From Promethearchaeota archaeon (GTDB lineage Archaea > Asgardarchaeota > Lokiarchaeia > Sigyniarchaeales > SOKP01): 64,000 nucleotides of DNA. The translations under genes and the position numbers were made by a program. Below are positions 34,139-49,216 of this stretch, in pieces. The notes under the pieces are model-generated. The model was given only the letters and a program-made list of their open reading frames with translations. It was not told where the DNA came from and ran no database searches. Position 1 is the stretch's first letter, and every line of letters begins with the position of its first letter. The DNA lies in assembly GCA_019058295.1 (NCBI GenBank), contig JAHPZI010000007.1:1-64000 (forward strand). The letters are read 5' to 3'.

Positions 34139-35722
34139 TTACTTTTCATTTTCAAGATTTTTTTCAATTTTTTTAATAGCTTTAGAAGCAGATATTCTAA
34201 CAATTCTATGAAAATCATTCACTTGTTTTAATAATGCAGGTAATGCCATTTTACCACCAAATTCTTCTAATAGTTTAATTAAGCTTAATTTTACTTTGGC
34301 ATTCTCGTCTAAATTATATTTTAGATGATCTATTAATCGTTCTGTATGCATAACAAAAAATCTTTCAGATTTAGAGCTCTTACCTTCTATACTTAAATTC
34401 TTAAGATAAATGTTATAGGTAGCGTCAGCTGCGACTTTCTTAAGAAGCCAATAATTATTCTCATCCTCAATTAAAGATATAAGAGAATCAATAGCATCTA
34501 TATTGCCGATTTTTCCTAAAGCTATTGCTGCGTTTTTTCGCACATCCAAATTTCTTTTCTTTAACAACTCAATTAACGGCTCTAAAAATTTCTCATACCC
34601 AATTTCTCCAAATAAAAACGCGACGCTTTCTAATAATATATCATTTGTAGTTTTAAGAATTGAATATAAGTAGTCAAAAGAGGCATCCTTATTTTTTAAA
34701 TATATATTCTTAATAGCATCAAGTACAAACCATTTCATATCTAAATCGATGTATTCAAATCGGATGTCCTCAATATTTAAAATATTTAATAGTTCAGGGA
34801 CCACAGATACATCTCCAATTTCGCCTAAGGATTTAATAGACGCCTTACTAACCTCGTCATATAAGTTATCTAAATTTTCTAATAACGCATCTAAACCTTC
34901 TTTAACCTCTAATTTTCCTATTAATTTTATTGCGTTTGTCTTTATAATGAAATCCTCATGATGAATATATTCTATTAGCTCGCTATTTATCTCGCGACCT
35001 AGTGCCTCTAAAATTTTTAAAGCGCTATCTAAAAAGTCATCTTTTAAAACAGTAATTATTATTTTCAATAATATATTTTTATATTGGATTAAATGTGACA
35101 AAATTTCAGGATAATTTATTTTATAAAATTTTGCCTCACCAGAAAAAGCATTTACGGTTGATAGCTCATATCCAATCAATTTTATTATCTCAATCTTGTG
35201 TTTTTCTGAATAACTCTCTTCTTTCAACGATTTTAATAAGAATCTTATTAATTTTTTTGGTTTCAGCTTTATCAATTGATGTGTAACACATTCTTTAATT
35301 GGTTGATATTTGTTACCTAATTCTTTAATAAAAAGCGGAATCTCATGCTCAGAAAATCTTACATTTGCAATTGCTTTTAACGTAGATATTTTAACTTGAT
35401 TATCGGTTGATTCTTGCTCTAATATCCAATTCAAAGGTTTCAAGACCTTTTCAAGCCCTAAAAACGATAAAGAATTAGCAGCTTCACATTTTAAATCTAT
35501 ATTTTCGTCAGAAATTAATACATTTTCTAAAATTTCAAAACATTCGTTTTTTAATATGGTCGAATTATGACTAATTAATCCTAAATATTTAATCGCTCCT
35601 TTTCGCCGCCCCTCGTTTTTATCTTTTTCTATTATTTCAAATAACATATTAATTGAATTCTGCAATCCTAATTCTTCTCGTTTTTGAAATATATCACGGG
35701 GAAGCAATTTTGAGTTTAGCAT
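34139..35722 (-). CDS. HEAT-repeat protein
   Basis: Repeated VR..AA.ALG.IG...A...L..L units. Confidence 0.88.
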   Translation of the reverse strand: MLNSKLLPRDIFQKREELGLQNSINMLFEIIEKDKNEGRRKGAIKYLGLISHNSTILKNECFEILENVLISDENIDLKCEAANSLSFLGLEKVLKPLNWILEQESTDNQVKISTLKAIANVRFSEHEIPLFIKELGNKYQPIKECVTHQLIKLKPKKLIRFLLKSLKEESYSEKHKIEIIKLIGYELSTVNAFSGEAKFYKINYPEILSHLIQYKNILLKIIITVLKDDFLDSALKILEALGREINSELIEYIHHEDFIIKTNAIKLIGKLEVKEGLDALLENLDNLYDEVSKASIKSLGEIGDVSVVPELLNILNIEDIRFEYIDLDMKWFVLDAIKNIYLKNKDASFDYLYSILKTTNDILLESVAFLFGEIGYEKFLEPLIELLKKRNLDVRKNAAIALGKIGNIDAIDSLISLIEDENNYWLLKKVAADATYNIYLKNLSIEGKSSKSERFFVMHTERLIDHLKYNLDENAKVKLSLIKLLEEFGGKMALPALLKQVNDFHRIVRISASKAIKKIEKNLENEK

Positions 35723-35768
35723 TATTTTAATTTACTTTTTTTTCATAAAAACAATTTCTTTAATTATT

Positions 35769-35893
35769 ATCATATAAAATCATTTAATTTATAAAAATTA
35801 TCGAAATAGATCATTACCAACAAAACTTTATCAACTTGGATCATAAAGCCTTTCAAAAATCAACGGATCAATGAGAAATGATCCTATCTGATC
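35769..35893. promoter_or_regulatory. Helically phased ATC-N7-ATC array upstream of hdr operon (putative operator)
   Basis: ATC at 35769, 35779, 35800, 35810, 35830, 35840, 35859, 35867, 35881, 35886 and 35891. Confidence 0.35.
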
Positions 35894-36040
35894 CTTTCTT
35901 TCGAAAAATTGATTATATTGATAAATAGAAAGAAATAAAAATATTAATAACGAATAGTATTTAAAAAAGAAATATAATATTATGATAATTTAATAATCCA
36001 ACGATTTATCTAAAAATTAAGAGGTGGTGTAAAAAACAAA

Positions 36041-38020
36041 ATGAAAAAGGATCAAACTCAATGGAATGATACAAAGAATAACGAAGAATTAGATAAACTA
36101 AGAATAGGATATTATTGTTGCGAATGAGGAATAAATATAAGAGGAAAAATTGACTGCGATAAATTAGCGGAGTATATTAAAAACCTTGATGACGATATAA
36201 TAATATCTAAGAAGAATGCGTTTCTATGAACTGATGCAGCGCAAAATGAAATAATCGAAGATATTAACGAAAAGAACTTAAATCGTATCGTGGCTAGTTC
36301 TTGAACTCCAAGAACGCACGAGCCAATTTATCGCGATTCAATTTCAAAAACAGATTTAAATCCTTACTACTTTCAGATGGTAAATATTCGTGAACATTGC
36401 TCTTGGGTTACAGAAAAAAAAGAGGACGCATTTGAAAAGGCAAAAATTCTAGTAAAGAGTGGTATTGCAAGGGCAAAATGTTTAGAAGTAGTTCCGATCA
36501 GAACTGTACCCGTCGAAAAAGCAACTCTAATAGTAGGGGGTGGAATCGCGGGTATGAATGCTGCGCTCGATTTGGCTAATCAGGGAATTAAAGTTTATCT
36601 TGTTGAAAAAAAGACAACAATAGGTGGTCGCATGGCTCAGCTCGATAGAACATTCCCGACTGATGACTGTGCAATATGAATTTGCGGTCCAAAAATGTTA
36701 GAAGTTAATAGAAATCCTAATATAGAAATAATTAGTTATGCTGAAGTAAAAAAAGTTGAAGGTTATGTTGGGAATTATACTGTAACTGTCGAAAAGAAGC
36801 CTCGATATACAAATAATGATTGTAATGGATGCGGGGCTTGTTCTGAAGTATGTCCCATATACACGATAAATTATTTTGATGAAAATTTAAGCGCTCGAAA
36901 AGCGATTGATATATCATTTGGCCAAGCAGTTCCTTTTCTATATGATATTGATCGAACAGTATGCGTAGAATGCTTTTCTTGAGTGGATGCTTGTGAATTA
37001 GATGCGATTGTATTTAGTCAGGTACCAGAAGAAGTCACCTTTCAAGTCGGTACAATAATTATCGCAACAGGTTGGGATATTCACGAACCCTATGGTGAAT
37101 ACGGTTATGGTGAAATTGAAAATGTTATTACACAAGCACAGCTTGAACGCATGTTGGCTCCAAATGGACCACTTGAAGGGCATGTGCGTAGAATATCGGA
37201 TGACAAAAAACCCAAGGAAATTGTATTTATTCAGTGTGTTGGAAGTCGCGAAACTGATAGAACATATTGTAGTGGAGTTTGCTGCATGCTTGCACTTAAA
37301 AATGGTCGATTGCTTTTAGAAGAATTTCCTGATGCTAATATTACAATATGTTATATTGACATCAGAACAAACGAGAAGGGATTCGAGGAATATTATCAAC
37401 GAGCCAAAGATGCTGGAATGAAAATGATTCGAGGGAAAGTAGGGGAATTCTCAGAAGATCCCGAAACAAAAGATGTTAAAGTACGTGTATATTCCTCTCT
37501 AACTGATGAAATAATTAACATCGATGCAGATTTAGTTGTTCTATCAAGTGCAGCACTGCCTTCACGAGGTACTGAACAAATTGCTAAGGTTCTAAACTTA
37601 GATACGGATAGGAATGGATTTCTTACGGAATCTCATTTTGGTTTGATGCCGCAAGAAACGAAAACAAAGGGAATTTTTATCGCAGGATTCGCTCAGGGTC
37701 CCAAAGACATCGCATATTCCGTATCTCAAGCACGAGCAGCGGCGAGTAAAGTTGCTGAAATGACTTCTGCAGGAGAAATAGAACTTGAACTTATAATAGC
37801 TGAAGTAGATAAAGAATTATGCATTTCATGTAGAAGATGCGAAAAGGAATGTCCAAAATCAGCTATAAAAATTACCGACGCTGAAGGGGCTGTTGTAGAT
37901 GAGATAAATTGTGATGGGTGTGGAATATGTGCGACGTGCTGTCCTACACAAGCAATTGATATACGATATTATAGAGAGAAACAATTATATTCTGAAATTT
38001 CGGCTATTTTAGAATCTTAG
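36041..38020 (+). CDS. hdrA: Heterodisulfide reductase subunit A, selenoprotein with five in-frame UGA (Sec) codons (659 aa)
   Basis: One continuous frame from ATG 36041 (GAGGTG upstream) to TAG 38018-38020 joins track ORFs 36377, 36695 and 36983. TGA at 36125 (CCEUG), 36227 (FLUT), 36302 (SSUTPRTHE), 36677 (DDCAIUI) and 36980 (CVECFSUVDAC). Each matches a Cys in the paralog at 42520. Confidence 0.93.
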
Positions 38021-38042
38021 ATAACATGGAGGTCTAATAAAA

Positions 38043-38483
38043 GTGGAAAATAATTATTCAATTCTTATGTTTGCGTGTTTAAAATGAGGTTATGGTGCGG
38101 CAGATTTAGCAGGTGTTTCACGATTTAAATACAGTCCTACAGTTAAAATCATCAAATTAAGGTGTACAGGAAGAATTGATGTTAAACATCTCTTGTTTGC
38201 TATAAAATCTGGTGCGGATGGTGTGATGATTGTAGGCTGACGTCCTAATGAGTGCCAATTTAAAGATGGAAACTTTAAAGCCCAAACCCACGTTGATCTT
38301 GCAAATAGAATATTAGATCGTAGAGGTTTTGGGAACCAAAGAATAAATCAGTATTGGTTAAGCTCAGCTGAATCAGAGAAATTAGTAAAAAGTGTTGAAG
38401 ATACAATTGAAAAAATTCAAAGATTAGGGCCTAATCCTCTTAAATCTATCGCAAAAAAAGTCTTAACTACCCCAGCTGAATGA
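38043..38483 (+). CDS. mvhD: Hydrogenase iron-sulfur subunit MvhD/VhuD, selenoprotein with two UGA (Sec) codons (146 aa), not in ORF track
   Basis: GGAGG plus GTG start. Reads MENNYSILMFACLKUGYGAADLAGVSRF...RCTGRID...GADGVMIVGURPNECQF. TGA at 38085 and 38238 align with Cys of CNWCSY and TGCHIGDC in the paralog at 45634. Confidence 0.93.
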
Positions 38484-38537
38484 ATCTTGTAAATAAATTC
38501 TAGTTACAAGCTAACAATCCTTGCAATGGATGGGGTA
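38468..38537 (+). promoter_or_regulatory. Candidate SECIS element (3' of Sec-hdrA/mvhD)
   Basis: Outer helix TACCCCA/TGGGGTA. ATGA at 38480-38483, GA at 38529-38530. Inner pairing CTTGTAA/TTACAAG or TTGTAA/TTGCAA. Apical A-run. Confidence 0.55.
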
Positions 38538-38589
38538 TTAATGAATAAAATATATATTTTTAAAAATAGGATAAAAATATTGTAGGAAT

Positions 38590-40098
38590 ATGGTTCAAGT
38601 AATAAATAACAAGACTTTTAAGGGCATCTCTCCAAATAAATTAATGGAAGCTACATATAGAGCTGCTGAAAATTTTCAGGTAAGGGCTTTCTATGAAGCT
38701 AAGAATGAAATCTTGAAAGTAGGGAAGTACACAGAAGAAGAATTTTTTAAAATTTTAGATGCGATGATTGATGCTGAGACTGAGCGAAAATTAATATTAG
38801 AGAGATTAAAAAGTAAAGAACCACTGTTTTTGGAAGAGATTGTTAAGATTATCAAGGAATTTTCCCCTGATAATGTTATTCGAGATATAATATATCTTAA
38901 GGAACAAGGTTATATTGATGAAAAAATTGAAGTTAAAACTAAAAAGGTCATAAAAAAGATCAAAGGAGAAGAAAAGGAAGTAGAAGAAAAAGAATATTTT
39001 TATAGATATCAAGTAAAAGATCTTCCAGATGATTTTATTGAACATTATTTTGAACCTGTTTCAATTGTTTTTGAGGCTGAAGTATGTTGTCATTGTGGTT
39101 GGTGTTCATCTATATGCCCTGTGAACGCAATTACAGTCACAGCAGATATATTAGAAATTGATGATAATGCTTGTATGAAATGTGGATTATGCTATACTAT
39201 TTGTCCTCGTTCATTTTCAATCGATCAAGCATATAAAAGTATTAAAAATTTAGATAAATCCTTAAAGTGGTCAGATAAAATTGGGGCTTATTATAACACT
39301 TATTCTGGATCAACTACGAAAGATAAAATTAAAAAAGTCAGGCAAGATGGAGGTGTTGTAACAACTCTACTTGAATATTTATTGAAAAATAAATTGGTTG
39401 ATGCAATTGTTGCGGTTCAACATTCAGTGGATTTATGGAGACCTGAACCTGTGATTGTGGATAATATTAAAGATTTATATAAAACTGGAGGAACGAAATA
39501 TGCAAATTCGCCTTCATTAGAAATCATTGATAAAGCAAAACAATATAACCGTTTAGCAGTAGTGGGCGTTCCATGTATGATGAAAGCTATTGAAAAAGCA
39601 ACATTATTTCCCAGTGGTCTGCCATTTTTTAACAATATTAAATATAAAATAGGGCTCTTTTGTATGGAATCATTTTCATATGCAAAAATAATCAATTTAG
39701 TTAAAGATAAATTTGATAAAGAAATTAATGAGTTAACTAAAATGAATATTGATAAAGGGAAATTTATAATTAACTTAACTTCTGGTGAGGAAATGGCAGT
39801 TGATTTGAAAGAAGTTCAATCTTATGCTCGCCATACTTGTCATTTTTGCGAGGATTTAACATCTGATTATGCTGATATCTCAGTGGGTTCAATAGGATCA
39901 CAGGCTGGCTGGTCTTCAGTAATAACAAGATCAAAAGAAATTGATGAAATTTATAAAGGCGCTGTTAAAGATGGCCTTATTGAATCACAAAACTTAAAAG
40001 AGGTAAAACCAGGGCAATTTTTAGTTGAGCGAATTGCGGGAGTGAAAAGAACAAAGTGTAAAGATCCTTTTTTAGAATTGAAAAAAAAAAGCCAATAA
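38590..40098 (+). CDS. FrhB/FdhB-family protein with N-terminal helical/winged-helix extension
   Basis: CCHCGWCSSICP, CMKCGLCYTICP, QDGGVVT, VGVPC, GLFCM, CHFCED...DISVGSIG. Confidence 0.93.
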   Translation: MVQVINNKTFKGISPNKLMEATYRAAENFQVRAFYEAKNEILKVGKYTEEEFFKILDAMIDAETERKLILERLKSKEPLFLEEIVKIIKEFSPDNVIRDIIYLKEQGYIDEKIEVKTKKVIKKIKGEEKEVEEKEYFYRYQVKDLPDDFIEHYFEPVSIVFEAEVCCHCGWCSSICPVNAITVTADILEIDDNACMKCGLCYTICPRSFSIDQAYKSIKNLDKSLKWSDKIGAYYNTYSGSTTKDKIKKVRQDGGVVTTLLEYLLKNKLVDAIVAVQHSVDLWRPEPVIVDNIKDLYKTGGTKYANSPSLEIIDKAKQYNRLAVVGVPCMMKAIEKATLFPSGLPFFNNIKYKIGLFCMESFSYAKIINLVKDKFDKEINELTKMNIDKGKFIINLTSGEEMAVDLKEVQSYARHTCHFCEDLTSDYADISVGSIGSQAGWSSVITRSKEIDEIYKGAVKDGLIESQNLKEVKPGQFLVERIAGVKRTKCKDPFLELKKKSQ

Positions 40099-40113: not shown

Positions 40114-41223
40114 ATGCAAAAAACATTCAAGAATTTAATTGAAGAGGTTCATAATAAAGGCATTTGTCAAGAATGTGGTGGGTGTGTAAGTTTTTGTAGT
40201 TCTGCGGAATATGATGTAATAGGTCAAAAAGATCCATATAGTCCACCAGAATATATAAATGAAGATAGATGTCTCGAATGTGGGATATGTTATTATATAT
40301 GTCCACAAACGCATATATTAGATGATGAGCTTAATAAAACGTATAATTTCACAGATTTTTCATCAAAACCTATTGGTAATTATGCTGATATCTTTTCTTG
40401 CCAAGCCACAGATAAGGAATTTTTAGAAAATGGAACTGATGGAGGCGTTGTGAATTCAATAATTAATTTTTTAATGGAGAAAAAATTAATTGATGGTGCT
40501 GTGGTTTCTAGAACAGATGCTCCTTTTTCTAGAGAAGCTACATATGCTGATAGTAAATATGACCTGTTAAAGGCTTCAGGAGCAAAATTAGATATTTCAC
40601 CGCAATTAGATGAAATTCAAAAGTTTTGTACTTATACTCATTCAATCCCTAAATTAAATCATTATAAATTTAAAAAATTGGCAGTAGTGGGAACACCTTG
40701 TCAACTATACACAATTAGATGTATGCAAGATTTAGGAGTTACTCCTTCAGAAAATATTGAAATTTGCCTTGGTTTATTTTGTTATGAGAACTTTTTCTTT
40801 GAAAAATTTCAGATTCAAAAATTTGAGAAAGATTTTAATATAAAATTTTCAGATATAGTGAAAATTAATATTAAAGAAGATGTGATTTTTAAAATAAAAG
40901 ATGAAGGATCTGGAGAAAAAATTATTCATATCCCTTTTAACCATTTAAACGATTATATGCGTCCCGCTTGTAATGCTTGTAATGATTTTACAAATATTTA
41001 TGCTGATATTTCTTTTGGAGGCTTAAGTTCTAATGATAAATATACTACTGTTATACCCAGAACTGAAAAAGGAAAAGAAATTTTATCTAAAGTTATTAAT
41101 GCGGGAGTAATTAATTGTATGGAATTAGATTCGGAAAAAAAAAATAAGATGATTAATTTAATTACTCAATTTTCTAAATCAAAAATTAAACGTAAAGAAA
41201 ATTTTATGAAAAATTTAAAATAG
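40114..41223 (+). CDS. FrhB/FdhB-family protein
   Basis: CQECGGCVSFC, CLECGICYYICP, TDGGVV, VGTPCQ, GLFCY, CNACND...DISFGG. Confidence 0.93.
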   Translation: MQKTFKNLIEEVHNKGICQECGGCVSFCSSAEYDVIGQKDPYSPPEYINEDRCLECGICYYICPQTHILDDELNKTYNFTDFSSKPIGNYADIFSCQATDKEFLENGTDGGVVNSIINFLMEKKLIDGAVVSRTDAPFSREATYADSKYDLLKASGAKLDISPQLDEIQKFCTYTHSIPKLNHYKFKKLAVVGTPCQLYTIRCMQDLGVTPSENIEICLGLFCYENFFFEKFQIQKFEKDFNIKFSDIVKINIKEDVIFKIKDEGSGEKIIHIPFNHLNDYMRPACNACNDFTNIYADISFGGLSSNDKYTTVIPRTEKGKEILSKVINAGVINCMELDSEKKNKMINLITQFSKSKIKRKENFMKNLK

Positions 41224-41227
41224 GGAT

Positions 41228-42520
41228 GTGAAAAATATAACTGAATCAAAGTCAGGATCAAAAAAAGAATTAGAACGTAAAAAATTATTTTCTGATGCAT
41301 TTAAATATTTAGACAAAGTTTATGAACCAAATTTAAGAAATATTTTGAAAAGATGTTATCAGTGTGGCCGCTGTAGCGGTGTTTGTCAAGTAAGTAAAGT
41401 TCAAAAATTTACTCCAAGTAAAATTATTCAATTAATATTAGAAGGTTTTGAAGATAGAGTAATTGAAAGTGGTGTCTTATGGGATTGTTTAACTTGTAAT
41501 CAATGTCTGAAAGATTGTCCAGAACAAATAAATTTTGCAGATCTTGTACGAATGGCCAGATACAAAATGAGACATGAAGCAGATCAAAATCCTAGTGAGA
41601 TGGTTGCTCATAAAGGGATCTACACTACAATATCTGAACTAATGAGTCGCCCTTATATCGAGCCAGATAGAAATCTTGATTGGATACCTAAAGAATGTAA
41701 AATCACAGATAAGGGAGATACTTTATATTATGTTGGATGTATACCCTATTTTAATTTTGAATTTGAGAATTTAGATAATATCGCATCAAGTACATTAAAA
41801 ATAATGTGTCAATTAGAAGAAGAACCTATTGTAGTTTTTAAAGAAGAAAGTTGTTGTGGACATGATTTATATTGGGGTCAAGGGAAAATAAAAACATTTA
41901 TTAAACTAGCAATGAAAAATATTGAAATGTTCGAAAAAGCAGGAATATCTACAATTGTGACTGCATGTGCTGAGTGTTATAGAACATTTAAAATAGATTA
42001 TCCTAATATATTTGACGATTTTAATGAAAAATTTAAAGTAAAGCATTTAATTGAATATGTGTATGAAAAATGGAAACAGAATAAAATTGCTTTTAAAAAT
42101 CCTAATGAAGATGATAAAGTAATACCTTTTACTTATCATGATCCATGTAGATTAAGCAGATTCTTACCAAATGATAATAATATAACAGAAAAGGTTCGAG
42201 AAATTTTTAAAGAATTTAAAAAATTAGGCTATGAATTTAATGAAATGTTGCATAATAAAGAAAATTCTCTATGTTGCGGAGTTAGTTCTTGGATGAATTG
42301 CAATGAGAAAACTAAAGCGCTGCGATATAAACGTATGTTAGAAGCAAAAGAAGCTGGTGAGATTATGGTTACATCTTGTCCAAAATGCAATATACATCTA
42401 AGTTGCATTCAAAATGATTTTGAGAATATCGCTTCAATTAAAATTATGGATTTTTCTGAATTTTTAGTTGATCATATCGAAGTAATAAAAGACGAAGATA
42501 ATTTGGAGGGAAAGGTGTAG
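41228..42520 (+). CDS. HdrD-like (HdrC+HdrB-type) Fe-S oxidoreductase with CCG domains
   Basis: CYQCGRCSGVC, CLTCNQCLKDCP, CCGH, YHDPCRL, CCG. Confidence 0.92.
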   Translation: MKNITESKSGSKKELERKKLFSDAFKYLDKVYEPNLRNILKRCYQCGRCSGVCQVSKVQKFTPSKIIQLILEGFEDRVIESGVLWDCLTCNQCLKDCPEQINFADLVRMARYKMRHEADQNPSEMVAHKGIYTTISELMSRPYIEPDRNLDWIPKECKITDKGDTLYYVGCIPYFNFEFENLDNIASSTLKIMCQLEEEPIVVFKEESCCGHDLYWGQGKIKTFIKLAMKNIEMFEKAGISTIVTACAECYRTFKIDYPNIFDDFNEKFKVKHLIEYVYEKWKQNKIAFKNPNEDDKVIPFTYHDPCRLSRFLPNDNNITEKVREIFKEFKKLGYEFNEMLHNKENSLCCGVSSWMNCNEKTKALRYKRMLEAKEAGEIMVTSCPKCNIHLSCIQNDFENIASIKIMDFSEFLVDHIEVIKDEDNLEGKV

Positions 42521-45500
42521 TGGAAGGCTCTGTTTTAGTAATTGGGGGTGGTATTGCTGGCATACAAACTTCATTAGATCTCACCGAATTGGGTTTTAAA
42601 GTTTATTTAGTAGAAAGATCACCCTCAATAGGAGGACGTATGTCACAGTTAGATAAGACATTTCCCACTAATGATTGCAGTTTATGTATTCTTGCTCCTA
42701 AAATGGTTGAAGTCTTCAGAAATCCAAATATTGAATTAATGACATATCACGAAGTAAAAAAGGTTACTGGTAAAACTGGTAATTTTCAAGTGACAGTTCT
42801 TAAAAAACCTCGATATATTGATGAGACAAAATGCAAGGGATGTGGTGATTGTGCATCTAAATGCCCAAAAATCGAAGTTCCTAATGCTTTCGATATGAAT
42901 TTAGGAAAAAGAAAATCAGTATATATACCATTTCCTCAAGCTGTACCCCCTATTTATTTAATAGATCCTGAATTATGTCTAAAGCTTACTAAAGGGGTTT
43001 GTGGTGTTTGTGAAAAAGTTTGTCAAGCTGAAGCAATTGTTTATGACCAAAAACCAAAAGAAATTTCAATAAATGTTGGAGCAATTGTTGTAGCTACTGG
43101 ATTTGATATGCCTGCTGAAGAATTATCTTCAAGATGGGGCTATAAATATAAAAATGTTGTAAGTGCTCTTGAATATGAAAGAATCCTATGTGCATCGGGG
43201 CCATTTGAAGGCCATGTTTTAAGGCCGAGTGATGAATCAGAACCAGAAAAAATAGCTTTCATCCAATGTGCCGGTTCTAGGGATTTACATGAAAATGTCC
43301 CATATTGTTCAAGTGTATGTTGTATGTATACTGCAAAAGAAGCAATAATTACTAAGGAACACTCAGATAATTCAAATTGTTTTGTATTTAGGCATGATAT
43401 TAGAGCTTATGGTAAAAATTTTTATGAATTTACTCAAAGGGCTCAAGATGAATATGGGGTTAAATATTTTCAAACAAAAATTAGTAAAATCGAAGAAGAT
43501 AAGGAAACTAATGATTTAATTATCCATTATGAGGATTTAAAATCAGGAAAATTCAATGATTTTCGAGCAAATTTAGTAGTATTAGCTACACCATTAGTTC
43601 CTTCGAAAGGTACAATAGATTTGGCTGAAATTTTGGATATAGAATTAGATCATTACGATTTCTTTAAAGAAAACTCATATTTTAATAAATCTTTATCATC
43701 AAGCGAGGGTATTTTCTTGTGTGGTTTTTGTCAGGGACCAATGGACATACCCGAAACTGTAGCTGATGCAAGTGGAGTTGCTTCTCAAATAGCTGCTTTA
43801 TTAAATTCAGTAAAATATACTGAAACAAAAGAAAAAGTTTTAGAAATACCTGAAATGGAAGTTAAAATATCAGATGAGCCACGAATAGGAGTATTAGTAT
43901 GTCATTGCGGTATTAATATAGGTAAATACGTTGATGTTTCTGAAGTTGTAAATTATCTTAAAACATTACCTTATGTTATTCACAGTGAAGCTAATTTATA
44001 TTCATGTTCCAGTGATTCTCAAGCAAGGATAAAGGAATTAATTAAGGAACATAATTTAAACAGATTTATTGTAGCATCATGTACACCAAGAACTCATGAA
44101 GCATTATTTCAAGAAACATGTCAAGAAGCTGGATTAAATAAATACTTATTTGAAATGGTTAATATCAGAGATCAATGCTCATGGGTTCATATGGGAGATA
44201 ACAAAGCTGCTACTGAGAAAGCTAAGGATTTAATTAGGATGGCAGTTGCGAAAGCACGCTTATTAAAACCATTACCAGAAGCGAAATTGGATATTATACC
44301 CACTACTCTTATTATTGGAGGAGGTGTCTCTGGAATGACTGCTGCATTAAATATAGCTTCTCAGGGATTTAAAGCATATATTATTGAAAAAGAAAATAAG
44401 CTAGGAGGAAATTTAAACAATCTTAATATTTTATATCCAATTCAAGAAGAGGCTTCATTATTTTTGAATGATATCAAGGATAAGGTTAATAACAATAAAA
44501 ATATCCAAATTTTCTTCAATTCTAAAATCAAGAATATTAAAGGTTATATCGGTAATTATGATGTTTCAATTATCGATTCAGAAAATAAAACTTATGATCT
44601 AAAAATTGGAACTATAATTGTCGCCACAGGAGCTCAAGAATTAAAGCCTGATGGAATTTTTCTATATGATAGAAAAAATAGAAATATTATAACTCAATTA
44701 GATTTAGAACAAAAACTAAAAGATAAAGATAAATCATGGTTAGATAATATAAACCGCATAACAACAATTCTATGTGTTAACGCAAGACAAAAAGAAGGAA
44801 TTACTTATTGCTCTAACGTCTGTTGTGGTGTTAGCATTAAAAATATTAATATATTAAAAGAATTGAAACCTGAGCTCGAAATTATTGTTCTTTATAGAGA
44901 TTTCCAAATGGCCAAAAAAGATTTTGAAGAATATTATCGTGAACGTAGAAAAGATGCTGTGTTTTTAAGATATGATTTGGATAATTTACCTAAAATTAAT
45001 AAAACAAATGATAAAATTGAAAAATATAATATAAAGGTATTTGATACTAACTTACAGGACGAGATTGAATTCGAAACAGATTTAATAATTTTATCTACTC
45101 CAATGATCCCAGCGGATAACTTGGAGGAATTGGCAAAAATGCTTAAAGTTCCATTAGATAAAAACGGTTTCTTTTTAGAGGCTCACGTTAAATTAAGACC
45201 TTTAGATTTTGCAACAGATGGAATCTTTTTAGCAGGATGCGCACAATGGCCAAAAAATATTCAAGATTCGATTTCTCAAGCTAATGGTGCTGCGGGGAGA
45301 GCAAGTAGGTTTTTAAGTGCTAAAACAATAACAACCTCAGGTTTAATCGCTGAAGTGAATCCCGAAAGATGTATTGGATGTGGAAAATGTGAATCCGTTT
45401 GCCCTTATAATGCAATAGAAATTAAAGAAGCATCAATGGACTTTGAGGATGTCAGTTTAGTTTTGAAAAAGTCATTCATAAATTCAGCATTATGTAAAGG

Positions 45501-45606
45501 ATGTGGAACTTGTGCTGCTACTTGCCCGAATGGAGCAATTTCAGTGAAACATTACGATTTTGATCAAATTTATGCAATGATTGAATCATATTTATTGGAA
45601 AGATAA
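42520..45606 (+). CDS. hdrA: Large HdrA-like flavoprotein (two FAD modules; Cys-only)
   Basis: Two GGG.(A/S)G FAD motifs, TFPTNDCSLC, ferredoxin motifs, internal CHCG...CTPRTHE...CSWVH domain. Confidence 0.95.
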   Translation: MEGSVLVIGGGIAGIQTSLDLTELGFKVYLVERSPSIGGRMSQLDKTFPTNDCSLCILAPKMVEVFRNPNIELMTYHEVKKVTGKTGNFQVTVLKKPRYIDETKCKGCGDCASKCPKIEVPNAFDMNLGKRKSVYIPFPQAVPPIYLIDPELCLKLTKGVCGVCEKVCQAEAIVYDQKPKEISINVGAIVVATGFDMPAEELSSRWGYKYKNVVSALEYERILCASGPFEGHVLRPSDESEPEKIAFIQCAGSRDLHENVPYCSSVCCMYTAKEAIITKEHSDNSNCFVFRHDIRAYGKNFYEFTQRAQDEYGVKYFQTKISKIEEDKETNDLIIHYEDLKSGKFNDFRANLVVLATPLVPSKGTIDLAEILDIELDHYDFFKENSYFNKSLSSSEGIFLCGFCQGPMDIPETVADASGVASQIAALLNSVKYTETKEKVLEIPEMEVKISDEPRIGVLVCHCGINIGKYVDVSEVVNYLKTLPYVIHSEANLYSCSSDSQARIKELIKEHNLNRFIVASCTPRTHEALFQETCQEAGLNKYLFEMVNIRDQCSWVHMGDNKAATEKAKDLIRMAVAKARLLKPLPEAKLDIIPTTLIIGGGVSGMTAALNIASQGFKAYIIEKENKLGGNLNNLNILYPIQEEASLFLNDIKDKVNNNKNIQIFFNSKIKNIKGYIGNYDVSIIDSENKTYDLKIGTIIVATGAQELKPDGIFLYDRKNRNIITQLDLEQKLKDKDKSWLDNINRITTILCVNARQKEGITYCSNVCCGVSIKNINILKELKPELEIIVLYRDFQMAKKDFEEYYRERRKDAVFLRYDLDNLPKINKTNDKIEKYNIKVFDTNLQDEIEFETDLIILSTPMIPADNLEELAKMLKVPLDKNGFFLEAHVKLRPLDFATDGIFLAGCAQWPKNIQDSISQANGAAGRASRFLSAKTITTSGLIAEVNPERCIGCGKCESVCPYNAIEIKEASMDFEDVSLVLKKSFINSALCKGCGTCAATCPNGAISVKHYDFDQIYAMIESYLLER

Positions 45607-45633: not shown

Positions 45634-46071
45634 ATGTCAAAAACAAAAAGAAAAGTTAAGAAAAAAGATTTTAATCCGGAAATTTTAGTTTTTTGTTGTA
45701 ATTGGTGCTCTTATGCAGGAGCAGATCTAGCAGGAGTTTCAAGATTCCAATATCCTCCTAATATGAGAATTGTTCGTGTTATGTGTTCAGGAAGAGTTGA
45801 TCCCTCATTTGTATTAAAAGCTTTAAAAGAAGGAGCTGATGGTGTTCTTATTACTGGATGCCATATAGGTGATTGTCATTATATCAGTGGTAATGAATAC
45901 ACTCGAGATAGATTTCAAAAACTTCATCAATTTATTATAAAACAACTGGGAATAAATGGAAAACGTGTAAGATTAGAATGGGTAAGTGCCTCTGAGGGAA
46001 AGCGATTTGCTGAATTAATCACTGAATTTACTAATCAAATAAAAGAATTAGGCCCATTTAAAGTTCTTTAA
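45634..46071 (+). CDS. mvhD: Hydrogenase iron-sulfur subunit MvhD (Cys form)
   Basis: FCCNWCSYAGADLAG, MCSGRV, GCHIGDCHY, WVSASEG. Confidence 0.96.
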   Translation: MSKTKRKVKKKDFNPEILVFCCNWCSYAGADLAGVSRFQYPPNMRIVRVMCSGRVDPSFVLKALKEGADGVLITGCHIGDCHYISGNEYTRDRFQKLHQFIIKQLGINGKRVRLEWVSASEGKRFAELITEFTNQIKELGPFKVL

Positions 46072-46450: not shown

Positions 46451-49216
46451 TTGGAAGGTTCCGTATTAGTTATTGGTGGTGGGATTGCTGGCATTCAGAC
46501 CTCATTGGATCTAACTGAACTAGGATTTAAAGTATATTTAGTTGAAAGAGAACCATCACTTGGAGGTCATATGGCGCAACTAGATAAATTATATCCTCAA
46601 GATGATTGTAGTTTATGTATGCTTGCTCCTAAAATGGTCGCTGTATATAAAAATCCCAATATTGAAATATTGACATTATCTAATGTGCAAAAAGTTTCTG
46701 GAAAAGCTGGAAATTTCACTGTAAGTATTATTAAAAATCCACGCTACATTGATGAAACAAAATGTAGAGGATGTGGAGATTGTGCCGCTAAATGTCCTAA
46801 AATTGAAGCTCCTAATGCTTTTGATATGAATTTCGGTAAACGTAAATCGATATATATTCCATTTCCTCAAGCAACTCCTCCTGTATATTTAATTGATCCT
46901 AAATTATGTCTTTATTTAAATAGAGACATATGTGGTGTATGTAATAAAGTTTGTAAAGCTGGAGCGATTGAATTTGAACAAAAGTCTCAGGAAATTACAT
47001 TAAATGTTGGAGCGATTGTAGTTGCTACTGGATTTGATATTTTAGGTGATAAATTAGCACCGATTTGGGGTTATCAATATAAGAATGTAATTAATGCTTT
47101 AGAGTATGAAAGAATTTTATGCCCCACTGGACCATTTGGTGGGTTTGTTTTGCGACCAAGTGATGAACAAGAACCTGAAAAAATTGCTTTTATTCAATGT
47201 GCTGGTTCCGGTTATTTGAAGGGAAATGTACCATATTGTTCCCATGTATGTTGTTTATATACTGCAAAACAAGCAAAGCTGACAAAAATTTACGCTGAGA
47301 ATTCTCAAGTTTTTGTATTTAGGCATAATATTAGAGTTTATGGAAGAGAATTTTATGAATATACTAAAAAGATTCAGAAAGATTATGATATTAAGTATTT
47401 TCATTCCAAAATAAACAATATTGAAGAAGATTCTGAAACCAATGATTTAATTATCCACTATGTTGATTTAAAAGATGAAAAATTAATCGATAAAGATTTT
47501 CGAGCAAATATGGTTGTTTTAGCCTCTCCAGTTGTTCCTGCTAAAGGCACAGAAAAATTAGCAAAATTATTAGGAATAAAATTAGGGAGATATAGTTTTT
47601 TTAAATCAAATTCCTATTTTAACACCTCTCAATCTACACGAGAAGGAGTTTATTTATGTGGAGCAAATCATGGACCAATTAATATCTCCCAAAGTGTTTC
47701 TGAAGCTAGCGCTGTGGCCTCTCAGGTTGCTATCCTCTTAAATTCAGCTAAATACTCTAAGATTACTGAAAAAGAAGTCGATATATTACCCGATGAGAGT
47801 ATTATCAAGATGACGCCTCATGCGTTGATAATTGGTGGTGGGGTCTCTGGTATGACTGCTGCCTTGAATATTAGCGAGCAAGGTTTTGAAACAAGCATTA
47901 TAGAAAAAGAAGAAAGATTAGGAGGGAATTTAAATGATATAAATATTTTATATCCATCTCATCAAGAAGCCTCAGAATTTTTAAATGAAATAGAAAATAA
48001 GGTCAGAAATAATAAAAACATTCAAGTTTTCTTAAATTCTAAAGTAAAAGAGATAAATGGTTCCCTCGGTAATTATAGAGTTTTAATTTTCGATTCTAAA
48101 AATAATACTCATGAATTAAAAGTTGGAACCATTATTGTTGCAACTGGAAGTCAAGAATTTAAACCACATGGATTATTTCAATATGAGAAAAAAAATAAGA
48201 ACGTTATAATACAAAAAGATTTAGAAAAATTGCTTAAAAGTAAAGATACATCTTGGCTTGATAAAATAAATCATGTAACTACGATTTTATGTGTGAATGC
48301 TCGACAAAAAGGTGGGTATTCATATTGCTCAAATATTTGTTGTGGTACTTCAATAAAAAATATCAATATTTTGAATAAAGTAAAACCAAATCTAGATTTT
48401 GTTGTACTCTTCCGAGATCTTCATGTCGCGAAAAAAGAATTTGAAGAATTTTTTAGTAAGAGAAAAGAAATTGCAAATTATTTAAGATATGATCCAGAAA
48501 ATATCCCTGAAATTACTAAAATTCAGGATAATCCAGAAAGATACGAAATAAAATTATACAACGAGAGAAACACAAATGAATACATAAAATTCAAAACTGA
48601 CCTCATTGTGTTATCAACTCCTATGATACCTAATGATGATAATGAAGAATTAGCCCAAATGCTTAAGATTCCTTTAGATGATAATAGTTTTTTTATCGAA
48701 GCGCATGCTAAATTAAGACCCTTGGATTTTTCCGCACATGGAGTTTTCATATGTGGTAGTGCATTATGGCCTAAAAATGTACAAGAATCTATAGCAGAAG
48801 CAAATGGAGCAGCGGGAAGGGCAAGTAGATTCTTAAGTTTAAAGGAGATTTCAACTACAAAATTAGAATTACTCTCATTTCTGCTTTCTATCCAATGTTT
48901 TTTTAAGGATATGATTGTAAACAATGAAAGATGTAATGGATGCGGAAGATGTGTGGAAGTCTGTCAATTTAAAGCGATAACATTAACAGATTTAAAACAA
49001 GAATTCGAGGATGTAACAGTGCCGGCTAAAAAGGCATATATTAATCCTGCCTTATGTAAAGGGTGTGGAAGATGTGCTGCCACGTGTAGGATAAAAGCGA
49101 TTGATCCCCTACATTATGACTTTAATCAAATCAAATCTATAATTGATCCTTACTTCTTAGAAAAAGTGAAAAGTGAGGAAATGGAAGAAAAAACTGAATT
49201 ACTGATGATTGATTAA
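46451..49216 (+). CDS. HdrA-like flavoprotein paralog lacking the internal CHCG/CTPR domain
   Basis: Closely similar to 42520..45606 but joins EKEVDILP directly to the second FAD module. GGAGG before TTG start. Confidence 0.93.
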   Translation: MEGSVLVIGGGIAGIQTSLDLTELGFKVYLVEREPSLGGHMAQLDKLYPQDDCSLCMLAPKMVAVYKNPNIEILTLSNVQKVSGKAGNFTVSIIKNPRYIDETKCRGCGDCAAKCPKIEAPNAFDMNFGKRKSIYIPFPQATPPVYLIDPKLCLYLNRDICGVCNKVCKAGAIEFEQKSQEITLNVGAIVVATGFDILGDKLAPIWGYQYKNVINALEYERILCPTGPFGGFVLRPSDEQEPEKIAFIQCAGSGYLKGNVPYCSHVCCLYTAKQAKLTKIYAENSQVFVFRHNIRVYGREFYEYTKKIQKDYDIKYFHSKINNIEEDSETNDLIIHYVDLKDEKLIDKDFRANMVVLASPVVPAKGTEKLAKLLGIKLGRYSFFKSNSYFNTSQSTREGVYLCGANHGPINISQSVSEASAVASQVAILLNSAKYSKITEKEVDILPDESIIKMTPHALIIGGGVSGMTAALNISEQGFETSIIEKEERLGGNLNDINILYPSHQEASEFLNEIENKVRNNKNIQVFLNSKVKEINGSLGNYRVLIFDSKNNTHELKVGTIIVATGSQEFKPHGLFQYEKKNKNVIIQKDLEKLLKSKDTSWLDKINHVTTILCVNARQKGGYSYCSNICCGTSIKNINILNKVKPNLDFVVLFRDLHVAKKEFEEFFSKRKEIANYLRYDPENIPEITKIQDNPERYEIKLYNERNTNEYIKFKTDLIVLSTPMIPNDDNEELAQMLKIPLDDNSFFIEAHAKLRPLDFSAHGVFICGSALWPKNVQESIAEANGAAGRASRFLSLKEISTTKLELLSFLLSIQCFFKDMIVNNERCNGCGRCVEVCQFKAITLTDLKQEFEDVTVPAKKAYINPALCKGCGRCAATCRIKAIDPLHYDFNQIKSIIDPYFLEKVKSEEMEEKTELLMID

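Follow-up and report, generated by a model that had tools for sequence, protein, structure and literature searches.

Introduction

Lokiarchaeial HdrA proteins have been described with up to four selenocysteine (Sec) residues in five possible positions (Mariotti et al., 2016; PMC4989117). In the hdrA-vhuD tandems reported by these authors, both genes share one selenocysteine insertion sequence (SECIS), the lokiSECIS, with up to six UGA codons over approximately 2 kb; the hdrA stop codon is never UGA, the SECIS and the stop codon may overlap, and no SBP2 is known in Lokiarchaeia (PMC4989117). The Sec positions were held not to be cluster ligands, save for one in the last iron-sulfur (Fe-S) motif that has an adjacent Cys, a view that predates the structure of HdrA (PMC4989117). 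More recently, 1439 Asgard selenoproteins were catalogued, amongst them hdrA-frhD/vhuD pairs with one common eSECIS-like element, for which an AUGA_AA core variant is included (Huang, Xiao & Zhang, 2024; PMC11227280). Here we analyse a Lokiarchaeial DNA stretch of 64,000 nucleotides (nt), hereafter the window (assembly GCA_019058295.1, contig JAHPZI010000007.1, positions 1 to 64,000 of the forward strand), which contains an hdrA gene with five in-frame UGA codons, followed by vhuD and a SECIS element.

The locus resembles the pairs of Mariotti et al. in that hdrA immediately precedes vhuD on the same strand, VhuD has two Sec residues and hdrA ends in a stop codon other than UGA. The element likewise has the AUGA core, 9-bp stem, A-rich loop of 11 nt and 3′ GA/AA of the lokiSECIS, is found only after vhuD and overlaps its stop codon. 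It differs in number, since the published pairs reach a maximum of four Sec residues per HdrA and six UGAs per SECIS, whereas the window has five and seven. Of the published Sec positions, only one falls within an Fe-S motif, the C-terminal one, where a Cys lies next to it; its counterpart in the window takes the place of the third Cys in the second motif, with no spare Cys adjacent. The HdrA and VhuD of Methanococcus maripaludis (9SFI/9T1S; PMC13518236) share with the window the fold, the domain order, the location of Sec197 with Cys194 between the A3 cluster and the flavin adenine dinucleotide (FAD), and Sec at both VhuD positions. However, this organism is a methanogen with one Sec in HdrA, a separate archaeal-type SECIS and an Hdr-Vhu-Fwd supercomplex, whereas in the window the neighbouring genes are FrhB-like and HdrD-like and a hydrogenase catalytic subunit is lacking. 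Eukaryotic selenoprotein P provides the other comparison, as several UGAs per message are decoded there via a 3′ SECIS over kilobase distances, but with two SECIS elements and SBP2 and with Sec serving selenium transport, in contrast to one SECIS for two cistrons and Sec at redox or cluster positions in the window.

The gene type is therefore already well described and the advance modest, and the novelty claimed in an earlier reading of this DNA by a model, made from the sequence alone (the sequence-only reading), was overstated. The reading had left open whether the Sec count was already reported: five exceeds the published four, but Lokiarchaeial HdrA with multiple Sec residues, this protein included, has been published (PMC4989117, PMC11227280). 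Its core interpretation was right, but by treating hdrA alone it missed the full unit, in which hdrA and vhuD share a SECIS and together contain seven UGAs. What is new is the number of predicted Sec residues in one HdrA (five) and of UGAs per SECIS (seven), the predicted placement of Sec at a genuine ligand position of a ferredoxin motif, read as a stop in the published catalogue, and the structural point that four of the five Sec residues probably share a single site at the N-terminal cluster. This ferredoxin position, 314, is outside the five positions of Mariotti et al., as judged by the description in that paper.

Results

hdrA is a single frame with five in-frame UGA codons

Translation of the forward strand from 36041 to 38020 with TGA read as Sec (U) gives a single uninterrupted frame of 659 residues, which starts with an ATG codon preceded by a ribosome-binding-like site (GAGGTGGTG). 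Translation table 11 splits this frame into three open reading frame (ORF) pieces (36377-36679, 36695-36982 and 36983-38020). The five in-frame TGA codons reported by the sequence-only reading, at codons 29, 63, 88, 213 and 314, are borne out by this translation (Table 1), and the Cys motifs that it quoted as their counterparts (CHCG, YSCS, SCTPRTHE and DCSLCI) each occur in the fused, Cys-only HdrA encoded at 42520-45606. Residues 18-658 align to the solved chains 9sfi_A, 5odc_A, 8rvu_a and 7bkb_A with E-values of 1e-164 to 1e-194, the best being full-length HdrA matches to 9sfi_A and 5odc_A (1e-194). Pfam identifies an FAD/NAD Rossmann domain and 4Fe-4S dicluster domains, and the domain order matches that of solved HdrA, with an N-terminal cluster domain, a thioredoxin-reductase/FAD domain, an inserted ferredoxin and a C-terminal ferredoxin. 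The conserved HdrA Cys set is complete when Cys and Sec are counted together (C27/U29/U63/U88, C210/U213 and C399, C410, C414 and C415, the last four belonging to the CxGSR...CSxxCC element, which is kept), and all four CxxCxxCxxxC-type motifs are present (C261-C271, C308-C318 with U314, C594-C604 and C624-C634). Judged by these alignments, the gene is a genuine Lokiarchaeial HdrA of the electron-bifurcating type, as in 5ODC. As the earlier reading had proposed, one predicted Sec falls on the canonical DCxxU site (Cys197 of 5ODC) and another lies inside a ferredoxin CxxCxxCxxxC motif, where U314, corresponding to Cys299 of 5ODC, occupies the third Cys position of the second motif (C308/C311/U314/C318) in the inserted ferredoxin domain.

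Internal TGA codons of HdrA pair with Cys columns

HdrA loci were gathered from the genome itself, from 135 genomes of its family and from wider relatives, and 63 HdrA frames read through TGA, from 58 related genomes, formed the set for analysis of Cys/Sec pairing. All protein-internal TGAs in these aligned frames sit on columns that are Cys in all other rows; they occupy 11 Cys columns, of which 29, 63, 88 and 213 are common and 261, 311, 314, 414, 415, 627 and 630 are rare, and none is found elsewhere. Columns 27 and 210 are always Cys. Since the internal TGAs are confined to Cys columns, the pattern is not due to chance, and the stops of the relatives are at Cys positions rather than at random ones, in agreement with the sequence-only reading. 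HdrA of this family thus has at least 11 Cys/Sec columns, counting 314, and the proposed recoding of UGA to Sec in hdrA is well supported on comparative grounds. Amongst 104 orthologs in a survey of the family, most carry three or four TGA codons and five TGA codons are present in five (the window's genome, G086, G094, G109 and G048). An apparent sixth TGA in the G086 ortholog is upstream of its likely start and was left out of the counts, as were four extra TGAs of locus L056 that represent read-through beyond a TGA stop.

Several relatives carry other patterns. In L089 (G006:C12:39000-44000), an HdrA paralog with 51% identity that also has five TGA codons, two adjacent Sec residues replace the 'CC' of CSxxCC (window positions 414/415), which is aligned to the cluster beside FAD, and another Sec is located in the C-terminal ferredoxin motif at position 630. 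Single Sec residues at Cys columns of ferredoxin motifs are found in L047 (G016) and L088 (G048) at position 311, in L090 (G011) at 261 and in L086 (G094) at 627. Across the relatives, Sec occupies another six positions in Fe-S motifs (261, 311, 414/415, 627 and 630). Separately, the hdrA gene of L056 (G031:C209:8050-13005) ends in TGA and not in TAA or TAG, and a SECIS-like element is located about 690 nt further on.

A single SECIS element follows vhuD

The vhuD gene starts 22 nt after the hdrA stop codon. Its product contains an FlpD domain (PF02662, E-value 1.6e-41), in which U15 and U66 align to both Sec residues (given as X) of M. maripaludis VhuD in chain 9sfi_K, and U15 corresponds to Cys16 of M. 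marburgensis MvhD. We considered whether the N-terminal domain in HdrA is homologous to VhuD, with U29 and U88 as the equivalents of the two VhuD Sec residues, but dropped this idea, as the BLASTP E-value of 7.7 is not significant. The vhuD stop codon lies within the AUGA core of the SECIS, the stem strands of which are AUCUUGUAA and UUACAAGCU with the loop AUAAAUUCUAG. An equivalent element (AUGA, 9-position stem, 11-nt loop and GA/AA) is found just after vhuD in 50 loci, where it is situated approximately 450-480 nt past the hdrA stop and where compensatory changes are observed in all nine stem pairs. A scan of 35500-39000 against Rfam with E-values up to 10 gave no match, and none at 38480-38514, so the element is defined by its pattern, by alignment and by a purpose-built covariance model.

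The covariance model was trained on hdrA-vhuD loci alone. In the genome from which the window derives, it detects six elements, of which 38480-38514 is the best match; three are the hdrA-vhuD loci used in training, and the three untrained matches lie behind a Sec-containing selD (C9), a [NiFeSe]-type hydrogenase C-terminus (C5) and a small protein with a GGGGUGC motif (C14). The hydrogenase element (C5:1574-1629, reverse strand) follows a large-subunit C-terminus, FDCULSCAAH, which is a VhuU/FrhA end of the [NiFeSe] type. For the small protein preceding the third element (C14:93997-94052, reverse strand), a membrane-spanning segment is predicted, and the protein may represent a redox selenoprotein of the UxC type. 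No second SECIS was detected near hdrA by the covariance model, 38480-38514 being the sole match in the region. With this lone SECIS located behind vhuD, one element appears to serve all seven UGAs, which are 2355, 2253, 2178, 1803, 1500, 395 and 242 nt away, a distance of up to 2.36 kb.

It is highly probable, in our judgement, that hdrA and vhuD form a functional selenoprotein unit of this Lokiarchaeial genome in which seven UGAs are decoded via one SECIS. The two genes would be read from one mRNA, presuming co-transcription, and the single eukaryote-like lokiSECIS hairpin at the 3′ end of vhuD would steer a Sec-specific elongation factor and Sec-tRNA(UCA) to the five hdrA UGAs, 1.5-2.36 kb upstream, and to the two vhuD UGAs at 242 and 395 nt. 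As the hdrA stop codon is UAG, it would not be read through. The predicted product is a full-length HdrA, an electron-bifurcating flavoprotein, in which Sec213 would work with the N-terminal cluster and Cys194, between cluster and FAD, and Sec314 would replace the third ferredoxin-motif Cys on the low-potential exit path.

Codon 314 is probably recoded rather than a stop

The published catalogue treats codon 314 differently. Its sequence file holds the identical protein as residues 1-313 with X at 29, 63, 88 and 213, and both supplement entries (Lokiarchaeia_GCA_019058415_U_5 and GCA_019058295_U_2) end in '...VCVECFS', that is, at the fifth TGA; this version has four Sec residues and is without the C-terminal 345 residues (PMC11227280). 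The context of the position 314 Sec is absent from the sequence files of this catalogue, and none of the six rare Fe-S-motif Sec contexts (positions 311, 414/415, 627, 630 and possibly 633) is present in them. If the TGA at codon 314 were a true stop, as these two entries would have it, HdrA would end at residue 313, or a second polypeptide would be initiated at the GTG that directly follows the TGA and gives rise to the 345-residue ORF called at 36983-38020; a Sec within a canonical ferredoxin motif would, moreover, be unusual. However, the column to which this TGA belongs is otherwise invariantly Cys (60 C, 3 U) and falls midway along a CxxCxxCxxxC motif, and a break here would cost a cluster ligand and split the FAD-binding thioredoxin-reductase fold. 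Codons 315-659 are in frame and approximately 80% identical to orthologs, and their ratio of non-synonymous to synonymous substitution rates (dN/dS) against close orthologs is 0.036-0.047, compared with 0.047-0.067 for codons 1-313. The low dN/dS across the 345 codons past the fifth TGA implies that this part is translated. Codon 314 is also TGA in orthologs of two other genera (G086 and G109), and three separate Cys-to-Sec changes at this position are required on the HdrA tree, a maximum-likelihood tree of 42 rows obtained with a quick rather than a careful search. Taking these observations together, we regard a stop at codon 314 as improbable.

Marginally less probable again is that the UGAs are decoded via the SECIS but that some of them receive Cys instead of Sec, perhaps depending on the selenium supply and, for instance, through mischarged tRNA-Sec or near-cognate decoding, in which case Se-ligated clusters would form in part or not at all. 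To insert Sec efficiently at seven UGAs with one SECIS is demanding, and the columns exchange Sec and Cys freely across paralogs, so that either residue is functional. However, no sequence feature favours such an arrangement, and the fact that most of the 63 sequences keep TGA at columns 29, 88 and 213 points to selection for Sec itself.

A sequencing or assembly error in one metagenome bin, or a recent inactivating mutation, could also have created the extra TGA, since a single third-position change turns a Cys codon (TGT or TGC) into TGA and the genome is an assembly of 30 contigs that is 79% complete. This is very unlikely, as two differently numbered assemblies share the break point (PMC11227280), TGA is found at the same codon in two more distant species, and no relaxed selection is apparent downstream of codon 314.

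Genetic code and selenocysteine machinery

The 3.2-Mb genome has 1582 ORFs that are 250 codons or longer; TGA terminates 218 of these (13.8%), and the open read-through behind TGA stops has a median of 7 codons, as it does behind TAA and TAG. Within the window, the ORFs with ends at 57040, 57477 and 63055 are confirmed to terminate in TGA, as the sequence-only reading had stated. This normal use of TGA stops throughout the genome indicates that the genetic code is not changed, and together with the Cys-column pairing and the genes for Sec machinery described below, it upholds the claim that hdrA is subject to recoding. A genome-wide code in which UGA specifies an ordinary amino acid (Cys, Trp or Gly) would agree with the pairing of the five positions with Cys, as expected if UGA were Cys, but it can be dismissed as next to impossible given the frequency of TGA stops and their short read-through, the restriction of internal TGAs to a few gene families that each have a SECIS behind them, and the presence of SepSecS, an EFSec-like gene, selD and a UCA tRNA.

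Most of the Sec machinery expected by the earlier reading is present in the genome (Table 1), namely a tRNA-Sec candidate, SepSecS, an EFSec-like gene located approximately 3 kb from both, and a Sec-containing SelD; PSTK is the component that was not found. ARAGORN reported no tRNA-Sec in the window or in the genome. The same program places 27 tRNA genes on both strands within about 3 kb of another contig (C22:30303-33335) and only 7 in the rest of the 3.2 Mb. Such a cluster might represent the tRNA array of a mobile element or virus; alternatively, the remaining tRNAs may have been missed because they bear introns.

Placement of the predicted Sec residues in the HdrA structure

In HdrA, the N-terminal domain carries one [4Fe-4S] cluster, the A3/HA3 'shuttle' cluster (PMC13518236). 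Columns 27, 29, 63 and 88 are the sole invariant Cys/Sec columns of this domain (39 and 120 vary), and Sec29, Sec63 and Sec88 would fill three of these four. According to Chadwick et al. (PMC9012536), the cluster is bound by Cys residues of the N-terminal domain together with Cys197 of the partner HdrA, and fused HdrAs gain and lose Cys197 and the N-terminal domain jointly. In the fused paralog of the window, DCSLCI is located in module 1 only and the N-domain motifs in module 2 only, a split that fits the Cys197/N-terminal-domain complementarity described for anaerobic methanotrophic (ANME) archaea (PMC9012536). Cryo-electron microscopy (cryo-EM) from 2026 shows Cys194/Sec197 as a selenylsulfide pair (PMC13518236), and in M. 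marburgensis the equivalent Cys202/Cys205 hold an unknown ligand in the space bounded by the mobile cluster, Cys16 of MvhD and FAD (PMC13580544). Canonical Sec213 probably belongs to the same site as the N-terminal cluster (PMC9012536, PMC13518236). On either view of the site, the candidate ligands are C27, U29, U63, U88 and the partner's U213, of which only C27 offers sulfur, and every combination of four contains at least three Sec residues. We infer from this that at least three Sec residues would ligate the N-terminal [4Fe-4S] cluster. The proposal of the sequence-only reading that three Sec residues do so stands as far as the occupancy of three of the four invariant columns is concerned, and is weaker as regards their role as ligands.

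Gene neighbourhood and further HdrA copies

Downstream of vhuD, on the same strand, the window of this non-methanogen holds HdrD/CCG-type and FrhB-like genes instead of canonical hdrBC, followed by the Cys-only fused HdrA and a Cys-only mvhD (Table 1); no gene for a hydrogenase catalytic subunit was found in the window. A third HdrA-like gene follows the Cys-only mvhD, again on the same strand. The genes at 42520-45606 and 46451-49216 are two very long fused HdrA-like genes with permuted modules. Elsewhere in the genome there are three more Sec-HdrA copies with two TGA codons each, one of which is cut by a contig end, in addition to Cys-only copies.

Table 1. Features of the hdrA-vhuD locus, genes for Sec machinery and alignment equivalences with HdrA of 5ODC. 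Coordinates refer to the window unless a contig of the same genome (C9, C30) is given; column counts are for U and C in the HdrA alignment.
Feature	Position	Strand	Details
hdrA coding sequence	36041..38020	+	659 codons; TGA=U translation; five in-frame UGA; TAG stop
UGA codon 29 (CCEUG)	36125..36127	+	Cys13 of 5ODC, N-terminal domain; column 54 U, 7 C
UGA codon 63 (FLUT)	36227..36229	+	Cys46 of 5ODC, N-terminal domain; column 27 U, 35 C
UGA codon 88 (SSUTPRTHE)	36302..36304	+	Cys71 of 5ODC, N-terminal domain; column 46 U, 16 C
UGA codon 213 (DCAIUI)	36677..36679	+	Canonical methanococcal Cys/Sec197; X there in 9sfi_A; column 61 U, 2 C
UGA codon 314	36980..36982	+	Cys299 of 5ODC; column 3 U, 60 C
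vhuD/mvhD (PF02662)	38043..38483	+	146 codons; GTG start; UGA codons 15 (38085) and 66 (38238); terminal UGA 38481-38483
Loki-type SECIS	38480..38514	+	AUGA core; 9-position stem; 11-nt loop; 3′ AA (AUGA_AA variant)
Two FrhB/FdhB-like genes	38590-40098, 40114-41223	+	Same strand as hdrA
HdrD/HdrCB-like gene	41228..42520	+	4Fe-4S dicluster and CCG domains
Cys-only fused double HdrA	42520-45606	+	1028 residues; paralog used for Cys/Sec pairing
Cys-only mvhD	45634-46071	+	Paralog used for Cys/Sec pairing
tRNA with UCA anticodon (tRNA-Sec candidate)	C30:102616-102699		Rfam tRNA-Sec model, 44.2 bits (cut-off 47)
SepSecS	C30:102776-104077		480 bits; 77 nt downstream of tRNA-Sec candidate
EFSec/SelB-like GTPase	C30:98015-99430		240 bits (cut-off 242)
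selD with one in-frame TGA	C9:23474-24247		188.6 bits
C27			Cys11 of 5ODC; N-terminal domain (alignment)
C210			Cys194 of 5ODC; partner of canonical Sec (alignment)
C308, C311, U314, C318			Cys293, 296, 299 and 303 of 5ODC; second motif, inserted ferredoxin domain (alignment)

Discussion

Several observations weigh against the interpretation of hdrA-vhuD as a unit in which one SECIS specifies Sec at all seven UGAs and in which Sec residues are cluster ligands. The first position of the SECIS stem is a U-C mismatch and the folding of the single sequence is not exceptional (z-score of -0.91). Across the 50 loci, 93% of stem cells are paired, compared with 40-51% when the partner strand is slid, but the loci were chosen with a stem filter and the paired percentage is inflated accordingly. 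The tRNA-Sec candidate scores below the Rfam cut-off and has two mismatches in the acceptor stem. Searches with TIGR03574 and PF08433 did not find PSTK in this 79%-complete genome; a full-length PSTK-like gene is present in 19 of 20 relatives. The insertion of Sec at the five UGAs of hdrA and the two of vhuD by way of a single SECIS is deduced from sequence rather than from protein. The assignment of Sec residues as putative Fe-S ligands is derived from alignment and the literature rather than from a check of coordinates, and the sources disagree, with Cys197 regarded either as a ligand of the cluster (PMC9012536) or as belonging to a Cys-Sec pair or ligand site apart from it (PMC13518236, PMC13580544).

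With these points in mind, the joint proposal that follows is tentative, and we consider it slightly less probable than its negation. HdrA of this family may contain natural Se-ligated [4Fe-4S] clusters, in which at least three selenolates would bind the N-terminal 'shuttle' cluster and a ferredoxin cluster on the exit path would have one Se ligand (U314), such that selenium would tune the low-potential branch of Lokiarchaeial bifurcation, with one SECIS driving seven Sec insertions in two cistrons.

The fact that a dedicated catalogue stopped at the fifth UGA implies that genes with multiple Sec residues, some at unfamiliar positions, are still under-called; reading through TGA at Cys columns recovers such missed genes. 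Seven UGAs in two cistrons, at distances of up to 2.36 kb from one SECIS, would extend the published limit of six. The lokiSECIS system is the archaeal system nearest to the eukaryotic one, and the locus provides a concrete construct for the rules of processivity and distance. Four of the five predicted Sec residues meet at the N-terminal cluster and the Cys194/Sec197 site, which according to recent cryo-EM is the unresolved step of electron transfer into and out of the bifurcating flavin. If Sec does ligate Fe-S clusters in these proteins, the HdrA family would represent a natural system for selenium-tuned clusters.

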